Shown here: positions 3,001-17,540 of the stretch, piece after piece
Layout: each line of letters begins with the position of its first letter
How positions within the stretch are numbered: position 1 is the stretch's first letter
Origin: an uncultured delta proteobacterium
GTDB taxonomy: Bacteria; Myxococcota_A; Polyangia; Polyangiales; B10-G4
Direction: 5' to 3'
Length of the DNA: 64,000 nt
Assembly (NCBI GenBank): GCA_963727445.1
Contig: CAVSGI010000014.1
Location: 1-64,000 of the forward strand
Position numbers and translations under genes: made by a program
Notes under the pieces: generated by a model
What the model was told of the DNA's origin: nothing
The model's input: the letters and a program-made list of their open reading frames with translations, nothing else
Database searches by the model: none

Positions 3001-3160
3001 ACACGCCCAGGGCGACGCCGACCGGTACCGCGACCGAAACTCCGACGTCGACCGCGATCGCGACGCCGACGGAAACTCCGACGGAGACGCCAACAGCCCC
3101 GGCGACTGCGACAGACACGCCGTCTCGGACGTCGACCGCGACGCCCCCCAGCACCGCCAA
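1..3160 (+). repeat. Thr/Pro-rich low-complexity coding repeat ([15 protein letters not shown]...), partial mucin-like linker of a surface protein; no start, domain or stop visible
   Basis: ACN-CCN codon pattern on + strand across 3.1 kb; frame switches repeatedly between ORFs 899..2005, 2002..2637 and 2949..; antisense gives VSVGVSVAV shadow ORFs. Confidence 0.85.
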
Positions 3161-3769
3161 TGCGCGCGTTGACGTCGACCCCGGACGCCAGACCGCTGGT
3201 GAACTGGTGGCGGGCCCAATGCCATTGCCAGCCGACCTGGGTGTAGGCGCCTATTTGCTCGGGGTGAACCACAGGAGTGCTGACCCGCCCATGATCGCTG
3301 GATTGAAACCGGGCGCTACGTTCGGATTGCCCAGGATGTCCCGATTGGGCACGCTGACGGTGAGGCCGAGCGGGAGTGCGAGGAACACCTCCGCCCCGAA
3401 ATCCGCGAGGGCGAAGGGGAAGCGAACTTCGGTTGGATGTCCCCGTTCACAGGAAGCTGTGTTCGTTCCCCGCGTTGTCGAAGGTCTCGGCGTTCCACCA
3501 GACGAGGCTCGACCGCGCACCGAGCGCCAGGTAGCGCATGAACGCGTACTCGGCGAAGACGTCGAAGCCGACCGTGGCGAGGAGATTGTCGTTTGTGTCG
3601 GGCAGGTTTTCGTAGTCGAGGTGGAGCTGTCCGGCGAAGCCCGCCACCATGCCGCCTCCGACGCGAACACCGTCCCGAAAGGGAGCGGGGGCCCTCCGCT
3701 CGTGCCTGGGCTGAGGCGGCGGTCGAGAGGGCGGCGACTCGCGAGTGCGAGGGACACGAACATGGGCAT
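3160..3769 (-). CDS. Putative outer-membrane beta-barrel protein, frameshifted, 3' end lost at the junction with the Thr/Pro repeat
   Basis: Stitched from ORFs 3251..3769, 3447..4073 and 2295..3272: signal-like start [15 protein letters not shown], then amphipathic aromatic strands [52 protein letters not shown]. Confidence 0.55.
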
Positions 3770-3778
3770 GGCCGAACT

Positions 3779-6334
3779 CTAGCCGGAGGTCGCAGCTCCG
3801 CCCAGTTCGGTCCCGCCTTCTTCCCCACGCGCAGAGGGACCTCGAGCGCGAAGGCCTGTCGCATGGCGTCGGCGGCGACCTCGGCGGCCGTCTCGAGCTC
3901 GTCCCCGTCGACCTCGAAGAGCACCTCGTCGTGCACCTGCAGCAGCGGCGCGGCGCGAAGCCGCGGGCGCGGAGCGCCTGGTCGGCGTGGAGCAGGCCGC
4001 GCCGGGACACGTCGGCCACCGAGCCCTCGTGGGTGGCGCGCCGGGCGAGCCGCTCCGCGTAGGCGCGCGCCAACGGTCGTTCGAAGTCGAGACCTCCGAT
4101 GGGCCAGCGGCGCCCGGCGAGGGTGACGATGAAGCCGCGCTTCGCGCCAGGCGCAGCTGCTCGTCCTGAAACGCCCGCACCACCGCGTAGCGGCGATCGA
4201 AGCGGTCGATGAGCTCCTTGGCCTCGCGGCGTCGACGCCGAGCTCGAGCGCCAGCGCGCTCGCGCCCTGGCCGGCGAAGGTCGCGAAGTTCACGACCTTG
4301 CCGATCTGGCGCTCCTTCTTGCCCGAGGCCTTCGCCGGATCGAGGTCGAGCACGGCGGCCGCCGTGAGCGTGCATGTCGGCTTCGTTCGCGAGTGGCTCG
4401 ACCAGCGCCGGGTCGCTCGTCAGGTGCGCGAGCACGAAGAGACCGAGCTGCCCGTAGTCGACGTGAGCAGGACGTGCCCCGGCGGCGCGAGAAGGCGTGG
4501 CGGATGCGCGCCATCTCGGGCGTCTGCCCGGCACGCGGCCGAGGTCGGGCGCCGAGCAGATGACGCGGCCCGAAAGAACGCGCCGGGTGAAACATCGCGT
4601 GCACGCGTCCGTCGTCGGCGATGCTCGCGATGAGGCCGTGACCCAGGTGTCCTTCAGCCGCCGCAAGAGCCGACAGCGGATCGACCAGCGGGACGATGGG
4701 GTGCTCGTGGTCGATGCGCTCGAGCGCGTCGGTCGCGGTGCTCCAGCCGGTCTTGGTCTTCTTGACGACCGTCAGCCCGAGATCCTCGAAGAGCACCGCG
4801 CCGAGCTGCTTGGTGGAGCCGACGTTGAAGCTCTTGCCGGCGAGCGCGTGGATCTCTGTTCGAGCTCTTCGCGGATCCGCTCGAAGTCGTCGCCTGCGCT
4901 GGCGAGGTCCGCGCCGTCCACGGCGATACCCGACAGCTCCATGCGCGCAGGTCTCGCGAAGGGCAAGGTACTCGTCCAACAGCGCTCGTCGGTCGTCGGC
5001 TCGAGCCGCGCCACACCTCGTCCGCCGCGCGGGCGAGGTGCGCCGCGTAGGCGGCCGCGACCGCCGTCCGATCGCGGCCCACGGCTTGCGCGCCCGGCCC
5101 ACGCCGCGCAACGCCTTCCTCGTCCAGCGCGCGGTGCAACACCTGCTGACCAGGAGGCAGATCGTGCGGCGCCCAGTTGCTCGGCTGGTGCAGGTGGGAC
5201 GCGGAGGCCGAGTCGCCAGCGATGCCCCTCATGGTGATGCCGCGCCGCGCGAAGGCGACGACAGCGCGCTTGAGGTCGTGCCCGACCTTCGGGCGCGCGG
5301 CGTCGGCGAGGAACGTGGCGAGTGCGTCGGGCACGTCGTCGAACACGGCGCCCGTCCCGCGAAGGGCACATAGAGCGCCAGGCCTTCGCTCTTCACGAGC
5401 GCGACCCCGGCGAGGCGCCCCGCGACGGGCGAGGGGTCCTCGATGAGCGCGTGGATGGCCACCGGCGCGCGTTCGAGCGCGCGAGCGCATCGGCGAGCGC
5501 GCCGCGTCGCGCAGACGGTGACCTCTACGTCGTCGAGGCGCCCCTCTCGGCTGCCAGCAGCTCGAAGAAGCCGAGCTCGGCGTAGAGGGCACCGAGCGCC
5601 GAAGCTCGGGCGGCTGAAGCCGAGCGCGTCGAGTGGCAGGGGCAGGTCGACGTCGATCGAGGCGGGCGCGCGCGAGCTCGCGTGCGCGTCGTCGAGCGAC
5701 GCACGCAGCGCGTTGCCGATGCGGCCTTCGATCTCGTCGGCCCTCTCCAGCGCCTCGTCGAGGGACCCGAAAGCCTCGATGAGCTGGGTCGCGCCCTTCT
5801 TGCCGAGGCCCTTGACGCCGGGGAGCGCGTCGTCGTCGCCGACCAGCGCGAGCCACTCGGCCACGTTCGCCGGCCCCACCTCGAAGCGCTTGCGCACGAG
5901 CTCGGGCGTGTAGCGAACGTCCTTGTAGGCGTCGTACCACCACACGCCATCGTCCACGAGCTGGGCCAGGCGCTTGTCGCTGCCGACGATGACGACGTCG
6001 TGGCCGGCTTCGAGGGCGGCCTGCGTGTAGGACGCGACGACGTCGGCGGCCGAGGAGGTCGTCGTCACGGTAATCCCCTGAGCACGCAGCAGATCCGGGA
6101 AGCGCTCCTGCTGCGAGGCGAGCGAGGATGACCAGCTCGAGGCGTCGGCGTCCGCATCGAAGATGGCCACCGCCATCTCCGGCTCCTTGAAGGCCAGGGC
6201 CCGCCGCAGCGCGCTGGTCGCGGCGAAGAGCGCGCCGGCGGGATCTCCTCGGGCGTCTGCCGGTCGTCGGAGACGCTCAGATACCCGCGCGACAGAAGAT
6301 TCGTCGCGTGGACGATGAGGAGCCGGTCGGTCAT
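3779..6334 (-). CDS. Divergent DNA polymerase I (family A) paralog with 5' nuclease-like, exo-like and polymerase domains; several frameshifts
   Basis: [20 protein letters not shown] (H3TH), [30 protein letters not shown] (thumb), [14 protein letters not shown] (motif A), [14 protein letters not shown] (motif B), [12 protein letters not shown] (motif C), GPNWAE C-terminus. Confidence 0.9.
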
Positions 6335-6869
6335 CCGCCGGCGGTCTCGGCGTGCTCGAGCTTTTCGAGGCCGCGCTCGAAGTCCGCGCCAATCACGGAG
6401 TCCATGCCCACGAAGAGGTCGAAGAGCTTGCCCATGAAGTCGTTCCTTCCCTCCATCCACCAGGTGACCTTCGTGCCATCCCCCTGCTCATCGAGGGCGA
6501 TGCCGACGTCGGCGGTGGAGGGGAAGGGCTCGATGAACTCGAGGTCGTAGGTGACCTCCTCGGCGCTGGCCGAGGTGATCGTCAACTTGCCCTTGCCGAG
6601 GTCGTCGTTGCCTTCCCAGGTGTACCAGGCGCCGACCCCGACGACGGATCGGAGTATTCGATGCGCGCGTGCGGATCGAGATCGATCCACGGGTTCCACT
6701 CGGTCACTTCTCGAGGTTCTCGAGGTGGGGGACGATCAGATTCGGCGTCGCGCTCATCACGCGGGTGCGCTCCACACGGTACTCGTCTGGTCGCATGGCG
6801 GCGGCGATGACCGGTCCCAGGTCAGGAGGAGGAGCACCACGCCCACCCCCAACGCGATCTTCTCTTCAT
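6331..6869 (-). CDS. SRPBCC (polyketide cyclase/START-like) family protein with N-terminal membrane anchor, frameshifted
   Basis: KIALGVGVVLLLL start; WNPW; GVGAWYTWEGNDDLGKG; DGTKVTWWM; IGADFERGLEKL; stop overlaps ATG of the PolA-like gene (ATGA). Confidence 0.8.
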
Positions 6870-7002
6870 GGAGCGGGAGGGTACGACAGCCCCCGCAGGT
6901 GGTCACGCGGCGGCGCCGCCCTCCGGTCGTTTCTCCCACTGGTCCCGGTCGAGGTCGGCGACCATCTCGTTTCCGGCGGTCTCCTCTTCTCGGCTCCCCT
7001 CA

Positions 7003-7288
<286 letters not shown>

Positions 7289-7439
7289 CGTCGTCGATGA
7301 GGTTGCAGCGTCGATGGGGATCGCGCGGTCGCGGACATCGCGGCTCGGGCACGGTCAGCTGCCCCTGCGGCGACGAGATGAAAGTGCCCATTATCTCCGC
7401 CGGTGGCGCACTGCGAGTTGCGCTGCGCCGAGGGCATCA

Positions 7440-8592
<1,153 letters not shown>

Positions 8593-8762
8593 CTACCGGC
8601 GCTCGGCCGAGGAGAACGCATCTATTATCGCGTCCCGATCGGTGCTTCCCTCGTCCCGCTGGCGGCTGCGAATATTCGCTCGGCCGCCTGGGCCAGCTCG
8701 CGCGCCTCCTGCGTGCTCGCCTGCACCGTCACCTCGCCCAGCCGAGGAAGCGTTGGAGGAAG

Positions 8763-8793
<31 letters not shown>

Positions 8794-9221
8794 GACAGGC
8801 GCGCCTCGCCCTCTTGCGCATGCGCCTGACCTGGCCGCGTCCATCTGCGCCGACACCGAAGCCTGCGACGCGCGCATGGACTCGCCCACCCAGGGCGTGG
8901 ACGCCAGCGAGCTCCGGAGTCAGCTTCACACCGCGGTTATCGCACATCGAAAGCGGCGGCTGCCGATCGAAGCCACCCTCCCGCCGGACGCGTCCCAAAG
9001 AAGGACCCGAGGAGCGCTACGCGGACGCCCAGAAGCTTCGTGCAGGCCCTCGAAGGCCACGAGCCGGGAGCATGGCCGAGACGCGGCGCGGTCCCGTGCC
9101 GATGACCCGCGAGCTGAAGCTGGCCCAGGCGGCCGCCCTCATCGCCCACGGCGCGTCGGCCGAGCAGACGGGAGGGGCTTTCGCGCCGCGGCCTCGCGGG
9201 CGACACGCTGGTGGTCTTCAC

Positions 9222-12200
9222 CGCCCTGCTCTTCGAGGCGCGGCTCGAGGATCTCCCGGCGCGCTCGCGGTAGTCCTCGAGCTTGGCGATGCGCAGGAGC
9301 GCGTCGATGGCCGGCTCGTAGTGCGAGTCGAGCCCGAGCACCTCCTCGTAGGTGGCGAGCGCGTCGGGCACGTCGTCGATCTCGCGCTCGAGCACCTCGC
9401 CGGCGCGGGGAAGAGCGCCACCCGCTTCTCCGCGTCCGCGGTCGGCGCGGCGCGGGCGCAGGTTGTCGAGCAGCTCCGGCCACATCGCCTGACGCTCGTA
9501 GAGCCGAGCGAGGGCTTCGATCGCGTCGGCGTTCTGGGCTCGTCGTCGAGCACGCGCTGGAAGGCGTCGATGGCGTCTTCGGGCTGCCCGAGCTGCTTCT
9601 CGAGAAGGGTTCCGAGGCGCCCGGCCAGCTCGACGCGCGACTCTGCCTCGGGCTCGAGGTGAGCGGCGCCGCAGCACCTCGGCGAGCTTCTCCGAGTTGC
9701 CGGCCGCCTGTAGAGGCGGTCGAGAGACTCGAGGGCGATGTCGTCCGAGTCGTTCTCGACGAGCGCCTACCCGTAGGCCTCGATGGCGCCTTCACGGTCG
9801 CCCAGGAGCTCTTCGAGCACCGAGCCTTCGCGCCTGAGCAGCTCGCCGCGCTCCTCCGGATCGAAGACGCGCTGCACCCGCCGGCCGAGGACGTCCACCA
9901 GCCCGCGCCAATCGCCGACCATCATGTGGAGCGGCTCGAGCGTCGACAGCGGCTCGAGGCGTCTGGGTCCTTCTCGAGGATTCGCTCGTAGGTCTCGATC
10001 GCCGACCGGGGATCGCCCCGATTCTCGTCGTGCACCTCGGCGATGCGGTTCAGGAGCTCGGTGACCCGCATGGGGTCGTCGGTCTTGGTGATCGCGGTCT
10101 CGTAGGCCTGGACGTGCTGGTCCCAGGCGTCGAGGAGCTCCGCCAGCCGTTCGATCTCGGCGCGCGTCGCGTCGTCCATCGGGTCGGCCGCGAAGGCGCG
10201 GGTCCAGGCGTGGAAGGCGAGGACGCCGTCACGGCCGCGCTCTTCGTGGATCCGGCCCACCTCTCCGAGGAGTCGAACCTTGTCGATCGGATCGTCGGCG
10301 ATCGCGGCCTGCGCCTCGAAGATGGCGATGCGCTTCCGCCACTCGTCGGCGCCCCGGTAGATGGGCTCGAGGATCTGGGTGATGCGCAGGCGGTCGTCCT
10401 CTGCGGTCACCATCTGCTCGAGCTTGGCGACGGTGGGCCCGAAGCTCGGGTCCATCCGCGTGATCTCCTCGAAGACGTCGAGGCCGCCGGCGCGATCGTC
10501 GAGCTGGTCGACGAGGAGCGCGCCGAGCCGATGCTTGAGCGGCACCTCGTCGTCGGTGCCCATCGAGACGTCCACCCGATGGCGGATGTGCTCCGCGAGG
10601 TCTTCCCAGCGCTCGCGCGCGCTGTAGAGACGGTCGAGGGCGTCGATCGCCCGCGGCTCGCGCGGATCGATCTCGAGGATGTCGCGATAGAGATCGATGG
10701 CCGCCTCGGGCTCCGACTTCTGCTCGAGCGTGGTTTCGGCCATCTTGTGCAGGAGCTCGATGCGCTCCTCGTCACTGGTGGCGACGTCGAGCCGCTCCCG
10801 GTCGAGGGAAACCAGGGCGTCCCAGTCCTCACGCCGGCGGTGAACCGAGTCGAGCGCGTCGAAGACCTCGCGGTCGGTGGGGTCGAAGTCGAGAGCGCGG
10901 CGGTAGTAGTTCGACGCCTTGTCGAGGTCGCCGGTCTTGTCGTCGTGGAGCTTGCCGGTGATGAAAGCGAGCTTGGCGGTCGCCGGCTCGTCGACGCTGA
11001 TCTCCGCGAGCGCCTCGCCGTAGATCTCCGCCAGCCGCTCGTGCTTGTCGAGCTTGCGGGCGAGGCGGGTCAGCGTGTCCCACACGCTCTCGTCGGTGGG
11101 CTCCTCCTGGAAGAGGCGCGCGTAGATCTCGAGCGCGCCGTCGAGGTCCTCGAGATAGTCCTCGTGGATCTGACCGAGGCGGCCGAGCCAGGTCTTGCGG
11201 TCCTCGACCACGTCGGAGGTCGCCACGCGCGCTTCGAGCACGGAGGTGACCTTCGGCCAGTCCATCGGCTGGAGGAACACGGGCTCGAGGATCTCGGCCG
11301 CCGCGGAGCGATGCTCCTCGTCCTCCATCAGCGACTCGAGCGCCTCGATGGTCGGCTGGTGGCTGCCGTCCAGGGCCAGCGCTTCGCGGAACTGATCGAT
11401 CGCCCGGTACATGTCGTCGAGGTGGTTCTGGGCGACGCGCCCGAGGCGATAGCGCACCTCCACCGCGTCTCCGGCGCCGCTGGAAGCCATGCTGTCCAGG
11501 CGCCGCTCGAGCACCGAGGCCAGGTCGTGGTATCGCTCGGCGCGCCGGTAGAGACGCTCGAGCCCTTCGAAGGCCGCCGGGCGCTCCTGTTCGCCGAGCA
11601 CCTGCTCGTACGCTTCGATCGCCGCCTCGACGTCGTCGAGGGCGGTCTCCGAGAGCTCCGCCTGTTGCAGCAGGAGCTGACGCGGCGCTCGGGATCGTCG
11701 GCGAGGTCGGTCTTGCGCCGCAGCACGTCGAGCAACCCGCGATGATCGTCCTGGCGCTTCTTGAGCGCCTCGAGAGCGTCGAGGGCCTCCATGTGATCGG
11801 GGCGCTCCTCGAGCACCTTGCTGTAGTACTCGCCCGCGAGCTCGTCGTTCTCGAGCCGGGAGACGGCGGCGTCGGCGATCTTGAGGAGGATCGACAGCGA
11901 CAGATCGCCGTTGAAGACGTCGCCCACGATCTCGCGGAGCAGCGCCACGTAGTCCTCGAAGCGCTCGGAGGCGACCGCGTGACGCTCGAGGTCGGACAAG
12001 AGGTCCTCGAGGTCGGGCTCGCCGAGGCCCGCCTTGATCGCGTCGGCCGTGAGGTCGAAGGCCCTCTCGGGCGACTCGAGACCGACGTCGGCGACCTCGG
12101 CGGCGCGGCGGAGCGCGGAGAAGCGCTCCATCGGATCGTCGGACTGCCCGGTGACGGTCAGCACCTCGATGAGCTTGTCGTAGTCGGCGGTCCCCTCGTA

Positions 12201-15200
12201 GCGGGGGATCAGCACCCGAGCCGCCGCGATGCGCGCGTGCCGGTCGTCGCTCGCGACCACCAGCTCGAGCGCGGTGAGCGCGCCCTCGTGGTCCGGCACC
12301 ATCGCATGACCTCGGCGTAGGCCTCGATCGCGCGTTCGACCTCGCCGGTCCGCTGGCGCATCAGCTCCGCGGCACGGAAGCGAAGACCCGCGCGCTCGAC
12401 CGGATCCTCGGTCTGCTCGAGCTCCCGTCCGACCACCTCGAGCAGGTCGTCCCAGCGCTCCGTCTGCTCATAGAGCCGGGCGAGCGCCGCCAGCACGTCG
12501 CGGTCGGCACCGAATCGAGCCAGCGCATCGTTGTAGGCGACGATGGCGTTGTCGGCGTCCTCGAGCTTGTCGTCGTAGATCTCTCCGATGCGCAGCGCGA
12601 TGCGCTTCTGCTCGGCCTCGTCATCGGTGACGTTGTCGTGGCTCGACAGCACGCCGATGAGGCGCTGCCACTGCTCGGCGCGCTCGTAGAGCCGCTCGAG
12701 GGCCTTCATCGCGTCGACGTCGGCCGGGTCGTGATCGAGTCGCTGCCGATGCGCGGCGATGGCGCCGTCGCGGTCCTCGAGGGTGTCCTCGAGGAGGTCC
12801 GCGAGTCGCACGAGCAGTGACTTCTTCTCTTCGACGTCGTGCACGAGCTCCACCTGCCGGCGCAGATCCTGGGCGAGGAGATCGAACTTCTGATGCCGAG
12901 GTGGATGCGCTCGAGGGCCCTCGACGCGGGCAGGACCACGTCGGGGTTGTCTCCGTCGGCCTGGATGAGCCGGGTGTAGGCCTTCTCGGCGTTCGCCGAG
13001 TCGTCGAGCTGCTCGTCGTAGAGCTTGGCGAGCTCCATCAGGAGCTCCGAGACCAGATAGGTGTCGGTCGTGTTCTGGACGGCCTCTTCGAGCACCTCGG
13101 CGCGCTCGCGTCCGCTCCCGAATCGTCGCCACCCGGGCCAGCTCTTCGCGCGCGCGACCGTCCGCGGGGTCGAGCGCCACGGCACGCGAGAGCGCGCTGA
13201 AGGCCTTGTCGACGTCGTGGTTCTTCACCTCGGCCAGCTCGGCGATGCGGAGCAGGAGCCCCACCTGCGAGCCCGGATCGGACAGATCCTCGAGCTGCAC
13301 CTCGAGGATGCGCGCGAGCTCCGCGTAGGCCCCTTGCGCTTCGTAGAGCGGCTCGAGGATGGCGGCGATGCGCTGGCGCTGCGGCGGCACCGAGATCAAG
13401 CGCTCGAGCGCCTCCTGAGAGCGAAGGTGCGTCGGGTTCTCCGCCAGGACCTGCTCGTAGTAGTCGACCGCGGTGGCCGGCTCTTCGAGCTTCTGCTCGT
13501 ACAGCGTCGCGAGCTCGAAGTTGGCATCGAGGAGGTCCTGCCCTTCGGCGCCGTCGAGCTCCTGACGGAGGAGCGCCGCGAGATCGCGCCAGCGCTCGGT
13601 GCGGCGGTAGAGCCGGTCGAGGGCCCGACGGCTGACCACGTGATCGGGCTCGAGCTCGACCACGTCTTGGTAGGCGCGGATCGCGAGCTCCGGATCGTCG
13701 AGGAGCTCCTCGAAGAGGAAGCAGACCTGAAGCAGCAGCTCGCGCTTCTGGTCGCCGTCGATGGTGTGGGCGATGCGGTTGCGGTAGAGGACCTGCAGGT
13801 CGTCCCACTTCTCGCCGTCGGTGAAGATCTGCTTCAGCGCTTCGAAGGCGCGCTCGTCGAGGGGATCCTGCGCCAGCACCAGCCGGTGGAAGGGCTCGGC
13901 AGAGGAAGGGTTGCCGAGGATCTCGTCGAAGATGGTCGCGGCGCGCGTCGCGAGCTCGCGCACGACCTCCGGGTCGAGCCCCCCTTCGTCGATGGCCATC
14001 GCATACGCGGCCGCGAGCGCTTCGTGCTTGCCCGCGCGCTCCGCCGCGTCGGTGATCCAATCCCAGAGCTCGGCGTCCGAGGGCCGCGCGAGGAAGGCGG
14101 CCTCGATGGCGTAGTAGGCGCCTTCGACGTCACCGAGCTCGGTACCGGCGAGCTCCGCGAGGCGCAGTCTGAGACCCGGATCTCGTCCGGGTCCTCGGCC
14201 TTCTCGAGACGCTTCTCGAGCACGTCGGCGAGCTTCTGATAGCTGGCCTTCGACTCGTACGCGTTCTCGAGGAGTCGGCCGACCTGCACCGACAGCTCCG
14301 GATTCGACTGCGCGAGGGCTTCGAGACCGGCGACCGCCATGTCGTGTCCGGGGGCGAGGCGCAGGACGTCGCTGTATGCGTCCACCGCGCCGGCCGGATC
14401 GGAGAGATGCATCCGCAACAGATCGCCGAGACGGAGGACGAGATCGATGCGCGTCGCGTCGTCGACGTCGAGCTCGCGGCGCCGGCGCAGGACATCGGCG
14501 AGATCGCCGTACCGCTCCGCAGCGCCGTAGAGGCGGTCGAGCGCGGCGAGGGCCTCGCCGTCGGCCGGCTCGATGGTGAGCAGCTGCGCGTAATGACCTA
14601 TCGCGGCGTCGGCGTCGTCGAGAACGTCCTCCTCGAGGGCCGCGAGCTCGCGAAGGCAGCGCACCTTCGTCTCGCCGTCGTCCGCGTGCTCGATCCGGTG
14701 CTGGTAGAGCTTGCGGAGATCGGAGGTGCGATTGTCGGCGCGGTAGAGACGGTCGAGCACCTCGATCGCTTCGGCGTCAGCGGGATCGGACGCGAGGATC
14801 TGCTCGAGCTGCTGGATGGCGTCGTCGGCGCGGCCGAGCTCTTCACCAGCGATGGCCGCCAGGCGGCGCCTCAGGCGCAGCGCCTCGTCTTCCGTGGCCT
14901 CGGAGAGTCGTGCCTGGTAGAGCGCGATCAGCGCTTCGTGCGCCCCTGCGCGGCCCGCCGCCGCTTCGAGCGCCTCGGTGGCCTCTTCGTCCGTCGGGGC
15001 GAGGGCATAGGCTTCCTTGGCCCAGCCGAACGCCGCCTGCTCGTCGGAGAGCCGGTCGACACAGAGACGGCGCAGATCCGTGAGCATCTCGAGACGCGTC
15101 TCGAGGGGGGCCTCCTCGGAGAGGTTTCGGAGCAGGATCTCCCGCATGGCCGCCACGCGCGGCCATTTCTCGTCCTTTTCGTAGATGGGCAGAAGCGCCG

Positions 15201-17540
15201 TCGCCGCGCGGACGTCGTCGGGACGAACGGAGAGCACCCGCTCCTAGTTCCGGAAGGCGCGATGGGGCTCGCCGATGCGGCCCTCGTAGATCTCGGCGGC
15301 GCGCACCGAGAGCTCGACCTTGAGCTCCGCGTCCTCCTCGCGCTCGGCGGCGCTGCCGAGCACGTCGACCAGCCCTTCCCAATCCTCGGTCTCGGCGTAG
15401 AGCGCCTCGAGGCCATCCCAGTCCTCTGCAGCGAGATAGGACTCGCGCAGGGTGCGCGTCGCCCGACCGTTGCGGGGATCGAGGGCGAGGATGCGCTTCC
15501 AGGCGCTGGCGGCCTGCGACGGCTCCGCAGGTGCTCGCCGTAGACCGTGCCCAGCTTGGTCAGGATCTTGATCCGCGCGCTCTCGTCCGCCTCGCGATCG
15601 CGCGCAGCTCGAGGACCTCTGCCAGGGTGCCCCAGTCCTTCTCGCGCTCCGCGAGCCGCTCGAGCGCGTCGATGGCGTCTTCGGTGTCGGGCGCCTGCTC
15701 GACCACCTCGCTCCAGAGCGCGATGGCGTCGGCGTTCTGGTGCAGCCGCTCGCCCGCGAGCTTGGCGAGCTCGATCTTGTTGGCCAGACGGACCTCGGGA
15801 TCGCTGGCGAGCTGCGACTCCTTCTCGAGGACCTCGTAGAGCGAGGTCCAGGCGCGCTTCTTTTCGTAGATCTCCTTGAGCTGCCCGAGCGCGCGACGGT
15901 TCTCGGGCTCGATCGCGACGACTTCTTCGAGCGGCTCGGTCGCCTGGTTGTAGTTGGCGAAGTGCTCGATCCAGAGATCCGCCACCCGCTGGTAGAGCGC
16001 GACCTTCTTGGTGGGATCGTCGGCCCCATCCGCCTGCCGCGTGAGCACCTGGATCAGGTCGTTCCAGCGGCCCATCGACTCGTAGGTGCGCGACAGCGCC
16101 GCGAGCGCGTCGCGTCGTCGGGGACGTGGGTGAGGATGGCGTTGTAGGTGTTGATCACCATCACGTCGAGGGCGAGCTTGTCCCGGTAGATCGGGACGAT
16201 CTCGCGCAGCAGCTCGACCTTGCGCTCGGCTTCCTCGTCCGGGAGCGAATCGATCTCGGCCTTCAGGAGCTCGACCAGGGCGTTCCACTTCTCGGCCTTG
16301 GCGTAGAGCTCGCGGAGCGCCGCGCGCGCCTCGGTGTGCTCGGGTGCCTGTCGCTGCACCGCCTTCCACGCGTCGACCGCGCGCTCCACCGTCGCGTCGC
16401 TGCTCTGCGCCGTGCGCGCAGCTCCACCGCGAGCTGGAGCTTCTGCTCCGGGTCCTCGGTGACGCGCTGCGCGTCAGCGAGGATGGTGAGCAGGCGCTGC
16501 GGATCCTCCGACGACGCCAGGTACTCGCGGTAGAAGTAGAGCATCCCCGGGTGCGCGGGATCGATCTTGCGCAGGCGATCGAAGTAGGGCTCGGCCTCGT
16601 CGGGGGCGGTGCGAATGCGCCAGTGCACCATGCCGAGCTGCAGCAGGATCCCCGGCTCGTCCTCGAGCTTGTGCCGGCTGCGCAGCGCGTCCTCGTAGAG
16701 CGCGACCAGACTGTCCCAGTCCTCGCGCTCGGTGAAGTACTCGACCAGGAAGCGAAGCGCCTCCTCGTGACCGGGAGAGAAGTCGAGAACCCGCTCGTAG
16801 CAGGACGCCGCGCTCTCCTCGTTCTCGAGGCGTCGGGTGAACACCCGCGCCGCGCGGACGTAGAGGTTGAGCTTTTCGTCCCGGTTGCGGGCGTGATCGG
16901 CGGCTTCGGTGAGGACCTTGGCGAGCGCCTCGAAGTTCTCGCGCGCGCGGAGCGTCTCGGCATAGAGGCGCGCAGTGCGGGTGGAGGCGGGATCGGCCTC
17001 GAGCGCCGCGGTGAAGAGCTTGTCCACCTCCTTGTCCCGGCCCCGCTTCTTGTACTGCCAGATCAGGGACGCGGCACGGGTCAACAGCGACGTCTTGAGC
17101 GTGGCGTCCGAGGCGTTGTTCGCCTCCTCCACGAAGCGCTTGGCGATCTGCTTCCAGTTCTCCGCGGTCTGTTCGACCTGCTCGATGGCCTCTTCGACCT
17201 CCGTGTCGTTGGGGCGCAGCTCGAGGGCGCGCTGGAAGGCGCCCTTCGCGCCTTCGTCGTCGAGGAGCTCTTCGTGGCGGATGCGGCCGAGCTCCTTGAA
17301 GAGCGCCGCTTCCAGATCGGGATCACTGCTGATGAGTGGGGCTTCGATCTCGATCAGCCAGGCCGCGGCGCGCAGCTCGCCGCGCTGCTCGTGCGACATC
17401 CGAGCCATCTCGAGGAGGCGCACTGGGTCCTCCTCCTTCGACCCGTTGGAGAGCACGTCGCGCAGACCCTGGATGGCCGACTCGTCGTCGGGGTCGTCCT
17501 GCAACATGCCCAGATAGTTCGAGAGCGTGAGCGAGCCCAT
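9222..17540 (-). CDS. Giant TPR-repeat protein (adventurous gliding protein AgmK-like), at least about 2700 aa, many frameshifts, truncated by the mosaic
   Basis: Consecutive minus ORFs 16263..17540, 16054..16389, 13834..15237, 12209..13999, 11328..12302 and 9922..11601 all carry AxxALxRLYxxxERWxDL TPR units; start MGSLTLSNYLGMLQDDPDD preceded by GGAG. Confidence 0.8.

Follow-up and report, generated by a model that had tools for sequence, protein, structure and literature searches.

A glycine-gated paralogue of DNA polymerase I in myxobacteria with an apparently rebuilt active site

Does a seemingly broken polymerase gene near the start of contig CAVSGI010000014.1, from an uncultured delta proteobacterium of the Polyangiales (assembly GCA_963727445.1), encode a second, specialised DNA polymerase I (Pol I), or is the gene decaying? 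The stretch of DNA analysed here comprises positions 1 to 64,000 of this contig and is referred to as the window. A preliminary description of the window drew attention to altered polymerase motifs and placed the gene at 3779–4700. Our analysis reveals instead a frameshift-riddled, full-length Pol I paralogue of about 850 codons on the minus strand (3779–6334), which starts at 6334 and includes 5'-nuclease-like and 3'-5' exonuclease-like domains. All five motifs named in that description are found on the minus strand, and three-frame translation spreads them over all three frames, a consequence of the many one-base assembly errors in the copy (44 gap events relative to the second copy described below, 37 of which are bases missing from the window). 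Matches to PF00476 are likewise recovered in pieces from three frames. The family to which this gene belongs is called here the Gly-gate (or gamma) family.

A profile search of the whole genome (9.47 Mb in 27 contigs, 85.6% complete) yields PF00476 matches at three loci. A canonical polA is present on contig C6 (DYSQIELR, VIYG and NTPIQG; 529 bits), and a cleaner second copy of the window gene on contig C10 (795128–797716), which has two frameshifts, is 91% identical to the window copy and has the same two flanking genes. The residue swaps are identical in both copies and are also carried by intact homologues, so they are not sequencing errors, as the preliminary description had argued. Of the 220 substitutions between the two copies, 114 fall at third codon positions. 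The duplicated segment spans 3160–6976 of the window and matches C10:794481–798332 with 91.4% identity; it looks like a diverged allele overlaid with long-read errors.

The composition of the active site was analysed by comparing 106 intact genomic copies of the family with 120 canonical Pol I proteins. A second set of 122 family proteins, picked by similarity and not by motif pattern, was obtained from a search with the polymerase domain of P0001 (120 listed clusters at 68–76% identity, plus seeds). Residue equivalences are based on phmmer alignments to Taq polymerase and Mycobacterium smegmatis Pol1, where the P0001 number equals the Taq number plus 12 in the core; Escherichia coli numbering follows the preliminary description, PMC10520511 and common usage. 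The equivalents of D705, Q708, H734, R754, K758, F762 and D882 are invariant in both sets (106/106 and 122/122), and that of E883 (E800 in P0001) is present in 104 of the genomic copies and in every protein. In P0001 numbering, D622 (D705), Q625, H651, R671, K675, N678, F679, G684, R758, D771, D799 and E800 are kept at 98–100%. Against this constant background, six residues of canonical Pol I have undergone fixed swaps in the genomic copies, namely E710G, Y766A, N845R, Q849E, N675D and N678R. The first four, reported earlier for the window copy, are fixed in the protein set as well. Further fixed swaps are K-to-R at 553 and 774, Y-to-W at 558 and R-to-W at 740 (P0001 numbering); in total about two dozen others accompany the gate change. 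New invariant residues include R580, S581, F582 and H765, and G627, A683, R762, H765 and E766 occur in 106/106 genomic copies and 122/122 proteins. Two large-to-small and two small-to-charged changes lie within one pocket. Codons at the swapped sites vary synonymously (Gly as GGG, GGC or GGT; Arg with all six codons).

In the window copy, motif A reads DYGQLGLF (4436–4459), with the catalytic Asp at 4457–4459 and Gly (GGT, 4442–4444) in place of the steric-gate Glu. Motif B (4264–4311) keeps R754, K758 and F762 and has Ala for Y766. Motif 6 (4011–4055) keeps R841 and shows N845R, Q849E and a new, near-invariant His, while motif C, LQVHDEV (3922–3942), retains D882 and E883. N675D and N678R are found in motif 2, the TGR region (4529–4573), where Q677 is relaxed across the family. 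Beyond what was described earlier, two residues that are invariant in canonical Pol I are relaxed family-wide. R668 in motif 2 is R in 44, H in 36, Q in 17, E in 6, D in 2 and T in 1 of the 106 copies (R in 96/122 proteins), and H881 in motif C is L in 66, V in 20, H in 19 and I in 1 (H in 69/122). The reported retention of R668 is therefore correct for the window copy, which has Arg, but is not a trait of the family; similarly, the reported change of R712 to F holds for the window copy, whereas H, Y or F occurs across the family.

Mapping of the contacts described for M. smegmatis Pol1 (PMC7102940) separates what is kept from what is lost. Every metal and triphosphate ligand listed there (D684, Q687, H713, R733, K737, position 741, D861 and E862) corresponds to a residue found in 106/106 genomic copies (104/106 for E800) and in 122/122 proteins. 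The thumb, including the R-L-K-D helix (4634–4763), keeps the equivalents of the upstream-duplex contacts N558, S561, Q564, T581, T586, T587, R611, R615 and R660 of the same enzyme; S501, Q504, T521, S526 and R549 of P0001 are conserved at 98–100% and T527 at 97%. Changes or relaxation in the family affect S648, S748, Y750 and R802 on the template side, together with R646 and N656, which contact primer bases. In the stretch TLAGRRWP (4101–4124), the template-backbone Arg (R728 in Taq, R802 in M. smegmatis) has become Trp. Judged from these alignments, nearly all contacts to the upstream duplex survive and those at and beyond the templating base do not.

The 5' region tells a related story. A 5'-3' nuclease (FEN)-like domain (5570–6334; PF02739 and PF01367 matches and family columns) is predicted to be inactive. 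In the window copy the D13 equivalent is His, the helical arch is deleted and the D140 equivalent is Arg (GSDKRLAQL, 5955–5984), and a conserved WWYDAxKD-RY stretch (5904–5942) and the H3TH motif (5808–5849) are kept. Among the 106 copies D13 is Asp in one, D115 is present in none and D116 in 14, D140 is Arg in all, and the arch is about 13 residues shorter. YKxxR is found in 0/106 family copies as against 117/120 canonical proteins. All eight 5'-nuclease carboxylates are reported to be essential in M. tuberculosis Pol1 (PMC7102940), and the domain, which the preliminary description did not include, looks catalytically dead. The ratio of nonsynonymous to synonymous substitution rates (dN/dS) of this domain is nevertheless 0.09–0.44, and such conservation despite an apparently dead site suggests a role in binding. 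The 3'-5' exonuclease domain, which is vestigial (5020–5540; weak PF22619 match), contains a conserved 13-residue stretch (5158–5199), and the DxE exonuclease motif was not found in this domain in the family.

Selection was estimated from the 16 closest pairs (>86% identity), which are not mutually independent. Here dN/dS is 0.07–0.34 for the whole gene (median about 0.13) and 0.02–0.28 for the polymerase domain; the values for the 5' domain given above come from the same pairs. Over all 3142 pairs with 0.1<dS<0.8 the median is 0.43, which we set aside because it is inflated by synonymous saturation at high GC. The Gly-gate family is under purifying selection, and its members do not revert to the canonical DYSQIELR and YG motifs. 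Both results go against the two sequence-based refutations that the preliminary description had set out, canonical motifs in close homologues and a dN/dS near 1. A canonical polA was verified by its motifs in 24 of 26 carrier genomes examined; in one of the other two (G013) it was recognised by score only and in the other (G528) as a fragment only. The suggestion of a second, specialised PolA is thus borne out by the co-occurring polA, the fixed swaps and the selection. An AlphaFold2 model (predicted local distance difference test, pLDDT, 92.4; predicted template-modelling score, pTM, 0.86) has the fold of Pol I, and every Foldseek match listed is a structure of the Pol I type.

Carriers of the family are scattered. 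Four were found among 40 relative genomes (G013, G022, G024 and G027), and the exact pattern occurs in 8/251 genomes of the phylum (reversed control 0). A motif scan yields at least 119 loci, including one in the cultured Labilithrix luteola DSM 27648 (L127/L244; genome G041), an exhaustive search added members at 48–54% identity, and 197 stretches were confirmed in GTDB genomes, of which 80 were kept. Carrier labels are mostly Polyangiaceae, Sandaracinaceae, Kofleriaceae/Haliangiales, Labilithrix, Archangium/Myxococcaceae or generic Deltaproteobacteria, and the ESM Atlas returned only clusters named as Pol I, the first mostly from Myxococcota. Current annotations of members read DNA polymerase I, 'polymerase' or hypothetical protein. 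A phage or plasmid origin was considered and rejected, as IMG/VR gave 0 exact-pattern matches and the best matches in phage and plasmid searches reached only about 31% identity or lower. A degenerate DNA pattern of motif A over 301 genomes gave no more matches than its reversed control and was dropped as a census.

In a quick maximum-likelihood tree of 73 rows the family forms one clade (SH-aLRT 100) on a stem of 0.84 substitutions per site. Its point of attachment, by way of P0135 as an intermediate on a long branch, lies among proteins related to a second myxobacterial paralogue, which has the motif DWSQIELR. Shallow groupings mostly agree with the canonical polA tree and deeper ones do not, which argues for vertical descent within families with loss and some transfer. 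Five carriers bear non-myxobacterial labels. The polA genes of G527 and G529 are myxobacterial-like (83% and 64% identity to references), that of G530 is of ambiguous origin (54%), and G528 has the fragment mentioned above. In the fifth, a contig of 1.06 Mb (G526:C2, locus L106) combines an alphaproteobacterial polA, 69% identical to Sinorhizobium/Shinella, with a family copy that is 84–85% identical to Labilithrix-type copies; this combination possibly reflects horizontal transfer, perhaps between phyla, or a misassembly. Three intermediate or more diverged proteins may help to put the changes in order. The gate Glu is retained in P0135, whose arch is shortened and whose R668 equivalent is His; in P0137 the motif is DWHQLDLR and N845 is gone; and P0127, a distant member, has Asn at Y766 and is without the new motif 6 His.

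How does the family relate to polymerases already known? Bacterial Pol I (PolA1 in PMC12926913; cluster 1 of PMC10201439) has the same FEN, exonuclease and polymerase architecture, about 30% identity and a common fold (template-modelling score 0.89–0.90 over the Bst large fragment), and shares the metal, triphosphate and thumb residues. It differs from the family in its gate Glu, Y766, N845, Q849, N675 and N678, which are replaced in the latter, in its invariant R668 and H881, and in its helical arch and its 5'-nuclease site with eight carboxylates, a site that is destroyed in the family. Three of three members tested score below the curated NCBIfam cut-offs for Pol I (PRK05755 and TIGR00593; 533–573 against 720 bits and 436–472 against 600), and the control P0004 scores above the NCBIfam Pol I cut-off. 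P0004 represents the second myxobacterial paralogue (L041–L043, L252–L254, L279; DWSQIELR, NFATIYGQG and PDLQRTP), which contains the nearest relatives in the exhaustive search (36–41% identity). This paralogue shares N675D, N678R and GQG after motif B with the Gly-gate family but keeps E710, Y766, N845, Q849, R668, H881 and the 5' nuclease motifs, and is apparently fully active. It is present in only some Gly-gate carriers; a further locus is L292.

The gate change itself has been made in the laboratory. Incorporation of ribonucleoside triphosphates (rNTPs) is conferred by E2335G in Pol theta (CS13) and, in Taq, by E615G, which the evolved variants SFR3 and AA40 carry (PMC6158600). These are the same Glu-to-Gly change at the same position, in constructs which keep Tyr671, Asn750 and Gln754, whereas the natural family rebuilds the whole pocket. 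In T7-type RNA polymerase (T7 RNAP), too, the fifth residue after the motif A Asp is Gly (D537/G542), which is reported to have a role at the 2'-OH (PMC8155940), and the motif B spacing R-x3-K-x7-(Y)-G is the same as in the family; however, the T7 enzyme keeps Tyr639 where the family has Ala, and has a promoter-binding N-terminus in place of FEN and exonuclease domains. A parallel between H784 of T7 RNAP and the family His was considered and is not claimed, the register being ambiguous. Accessory family-A enzymes that do not replace Pol I are known as APEX/PolA2, PolA3 and CCPol. In contrast to the Gly-gate family, PolA2 and PolA3 are without a 5' nuclease domain, APEX/PolA2 is actinobacterial (Gly-gate members score far below the PRK14975 cut-off), PolA3 resides in prophages and proofreads actively, and CCPol, in which E710 and F762 are retained, prefers deoxyribonucleoside triphosphates (dNTPs) and belongs to an MP/helicase operon on a mobile element. 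On the features tested, membership in canonical Pol I, APEX, PolA3, CCPol and T7 RNAP fails. We found no description of the family in the literature searched, in which most subscription journals are not covered. PMC12926913 (Timinskas et al. 2026) defines PolA1, PolA1-like, PolA2 and PolA3 and has L. luteola in its genome list, and no steric-gate variant is mentioned in the main text as available to us; among the 19 family-A clusters set out in PMC10201439 (Czernecki et al. 2023) none is given as myxobacterial. We regard it as a subfamily of family-A polymerases, its active site rebuilt, that has so far gone undescribed.

What such an enzyme might do is suggested by the combination of these features. 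Invariant chemistry together with a removed gate argues for rNTP-accepting nucleotide transfer, the network that reads the minor groove is lost along with primer-terminus residues, which speaks against processive and faithful copying, and the retained thumb with the dead-looking FEN/H3TH domain argues for a nick, gap or end as substrate. Our proposal, which we hold at about an even chance, is that the protein may be an accessory, distributive, rNTP-accepting nucleotidyltransferase derived from Pol I and acting at nicks, short gaps or ends. It would probably patch or cap DNA ends with ribonucleotides instead of copying DNA in the normal way. The thumb would grip the upstream duplex, and at a nick or short gap the inactive FEN/H3TH domain would probably hold the duplex on the downstream side. 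With its intact two-metal centre for triphosphate binding, the enzyme would then add one or a few nucleotides to the 3'-OH, and ribonucleotides would be let in because the steric gate is Gly. The templating base would be read loosely, or by the rebuilt protein surface of R762, H765 and E766 (P0001 numbering), and extension would be distributive, because Y766, N845, Q849, R668 and H881, together with two contacts to the template backbone, have been replaced or relaxed. Single E710, R668, N845 and Y766 mutants of Klenow are reported to have lowered fidelity (PMC10520511). Since the replacements do not themselves vary, a rebuilt pocket is likelier than simple error-prone behaviour, which had been put forward as one option. 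The likeliest job would be 'ribo-patch' repair, at damaged or abasic gaps and ends, in cells that are not growing and are poor in dNTPs, with canonical Pol I alongside. By analogy, the enzyme may work like Prim-PolC, which fills short gaps with RNA in stationary phase (PMC5663958), or like mycobacterial DinB2, mentioned in connection with ribonucleotide patches (PMC12926913); the proposed likeness, which includes the LigD polymerase domain and LigC, lies in rNTP filling of short gaps and ends in non-growing cells. These enzymes have unrelated folds (archaeo-eukaryotic primase and Y family) and ligase or Ku partners, none of which is linked to the Gly-gate gene.

Several observations weigh against this proposal. 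Single R668 or Q849 changes impair binding or catalysis in Klenow (PMC10520511), so activity might be low or dependent on the new Arg/His/Glu network, and with Q849E a carboxylate could be back near the 2' position, which would re-close the gate. P0127, with Asn at Y766 and no family His, departs from the pattern, and the invariance of A683 (Y766A) in the genomic set is partly by construction, since that set was selected with the pattern NFATFAGQ. No ligase, Ku or repair gene recurs as a neighbour in 81 loci and 160 flanking proteins. Ku is present in 17/23 carriers as against 19/33 non-carriers, 6 carriers being without it, and a link to non-homologous end joining is not supported, with neither clear enrichment nor linkage. 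A full-length RNase HII match is found in 20/23 carriers as against 15/24 others, the genomes being kin and not independent, and a match to PF01351 is missing in L. luteola. Several other Polyangiales show only weak, partial RNase HII matches; these, like the missing match in L. luteola, may be a real loss or an effect of the first-look filter of the search.

Among other explanations, a rather unlikely one is that the protein is a protein-templated or template-independent terminal transferase, which adds one specific (ribo)nucleotide to DNA ends. Arg762, His765 and Glu766 would read the incoming base in the cavity left by Y766A, and ends, for example those of invading DNA, would be marked or blocked. 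Rev1 and the CCA enzyme may offer an analogy. More specifically, and as tentatively, a family-A scaffold may have turned into an RNA-synthesising, protein-templated nucleotidyltransferase in which the Arg/His/Glu triad of helix Q takes the place of the templating base and a defined ribonucleotide is added; it would be, as part of this same doubtful reading, a stand-alone, horizontally mobile end-marking or defence enzyme at DNA nicks and ends. The replacements are indeed invariant rather than relaxed, downstream-template contacts are lost (R802W), the gene is stand-alone, patchy (8/251) and portable (a tRNA-Leu adjoins it in 3/6 loci), and the G526 copy lies on a contig with a rhizobial-like polA. 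On the other hand, R841 and the thumb-template contacts are kept and the gene is not in defence islands; the PADLOC match to the DRT protein RTasPolA is weak (38 and 32 bits, E 2e-10), and no reverse transcriptase family was found among the 160 flanking proteins scanned.

Less probable again is a compensated repacking, in which Glu766 would replace the gate carboxylate and Arg762 would fill the hole left by Tyr, the outcome being an ordinary DNA polymerase that is specific for dNTPs, has no nuclease activity and serves in gap filling or lesion bypass. The paired size and charge changes in one pocket with F762 kept, the hydrogen bond between E615 and Y671 in Taq (PMC6158600) and the closeness of Q797, R615, E658 and D830 in Bst (PMC10520511) would suit such an exchange. 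However, the gate depends on the position-710 side chain, which the family lacks, and R668 and H881 are relaxed, about two dozen other swaps are fixed and the stem is long. We consider it quite improbable that the enzyme is non-synthetic and either removes 3' ribonucleotides or blocked ends by pyrophosphorolysis or serves as a sensor or scaffold for NTP and DNA. Pyrophosphate-binding residues are invariant while the primer-activating R668 and H881 are relaxed, and both nuclease sites look dead in domains under purifying selection; but the invariant residues are equally needed for forward synthesis, and no partner gene is present. A decaying pseudogene or sequencing artefact, to which the approximately 40 indels of the window copy and the two frameshifts of the C10 copy might point, is extremely improbable. 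It is refuted for the family, since 106 genomic copies with an intact coding sequence and 122 proteins carry the same residues and dN/dS is far below 1, and the share of third-position substitutions between the two copies of this genome also stands against it.

The gene appears to stand on its own. In 81 clustered loci no conserved neighbour gene and no DNA-related recurrent neighbour was found, and the 160 flanking proteins scanned are a miscellany in which no defence island was seen. An operon or multi-gene partner is therefore rejected, and the word 'system', used in the preliminary description, does not apply. The commonest neighbours, Ser/Thr kinases (21 loci) and sigma-54 activators (14 loci), are taken to be common families in these genomes. 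A hexamer TAnnnT, resembling a -10 element, lies 5–30 nucleotides before the start in 55/105 loci (1–4/105 in control windows) and Shine-Dalgarno sites are present in only 17/105, which suggests that an own promoter and a short leader are usual. No SOS box was evident by eye in the 105 upstream regions, where no formal motif search was run. A regular expression for the beta-clamp motif matched 48/106 copies and is too loose to interpret. In 3/6 loci scanned, from Archangium/Myxococcaceae, a tRNA cluster whose last member is tRNA-Leu(tag) immediately precedes the gene (L090:6554–7989, L099:201–1725 and L157:4507–4737), with tig-clpP close in L090 and L099.

In the window, the stop of an upstream SRPBCC (polyketide-cyclase-like) gene (6331–6870, minus strand) overlaps the polymerase start (ATGA), and a small gene without a Pfam family, whose start resembles a signal peptide, lies downstream (3160–3769, minus strand). 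Both are likewise present at C10 and are not conserved across the family. Positions 6992–9225 are a mosaic of 30–560 bp scraps matching seven other contigs, most at 95–100% identity, including a pgk piece (91%) and groEL-like and rpoC pieces. Because the duplicated segment is followed by this chimeric mosaic, genes read there are not true neighbours and the wider neighbourhood is an uninformative assembly artefact. The contig start (1–3159) is a long, frameshifted, Thr/Pro/Glu-rich low-complexity repeat with only self-matches in the genome, and a very long, frameshifted tetratricopeptide-repeat gene occupies 9925–15500 on the minus strand. Elsewhere, a prophage-like frame of 1567 codons near a capsid-like gene (L039:3420–8120, G020:C41) has a scored family-A polymerase domain to which, by eye, a primase-like N-terminus and a helicase-like ATPase are seemingly fused. 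Two weak, divergent PolA-domain matches (L245 and L246 on G041:C1; 91 and 40 bits) lie near the start of the L. luteola chromosome.

To our knowledge, the steric-gate Glu, Y766, N845, Q849 and R668 have been regarded as common to all of family A. Here they have been replaced jointly in a widespread cellular lineage, which holds the replacements near 100% and is a candidate for a repair or defence route in myxobacteria. If active on rNTPs, the enzyme would be a natural answer to the partly solved engineering problem of turning Pol I into a polymerase for RNA or 2'-modified nucleotides, and a test case for the way in which family-A DNA polymerases could give rise to single-subunit RNA polymerases. 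If the protein-templated reading were true, it would be a cellular counterpart of the switch from DNA to RNA polymerase in T7 RNA polymerase. As a single gene present in the cultured L. luteola DSM 27648, it is directly testable.

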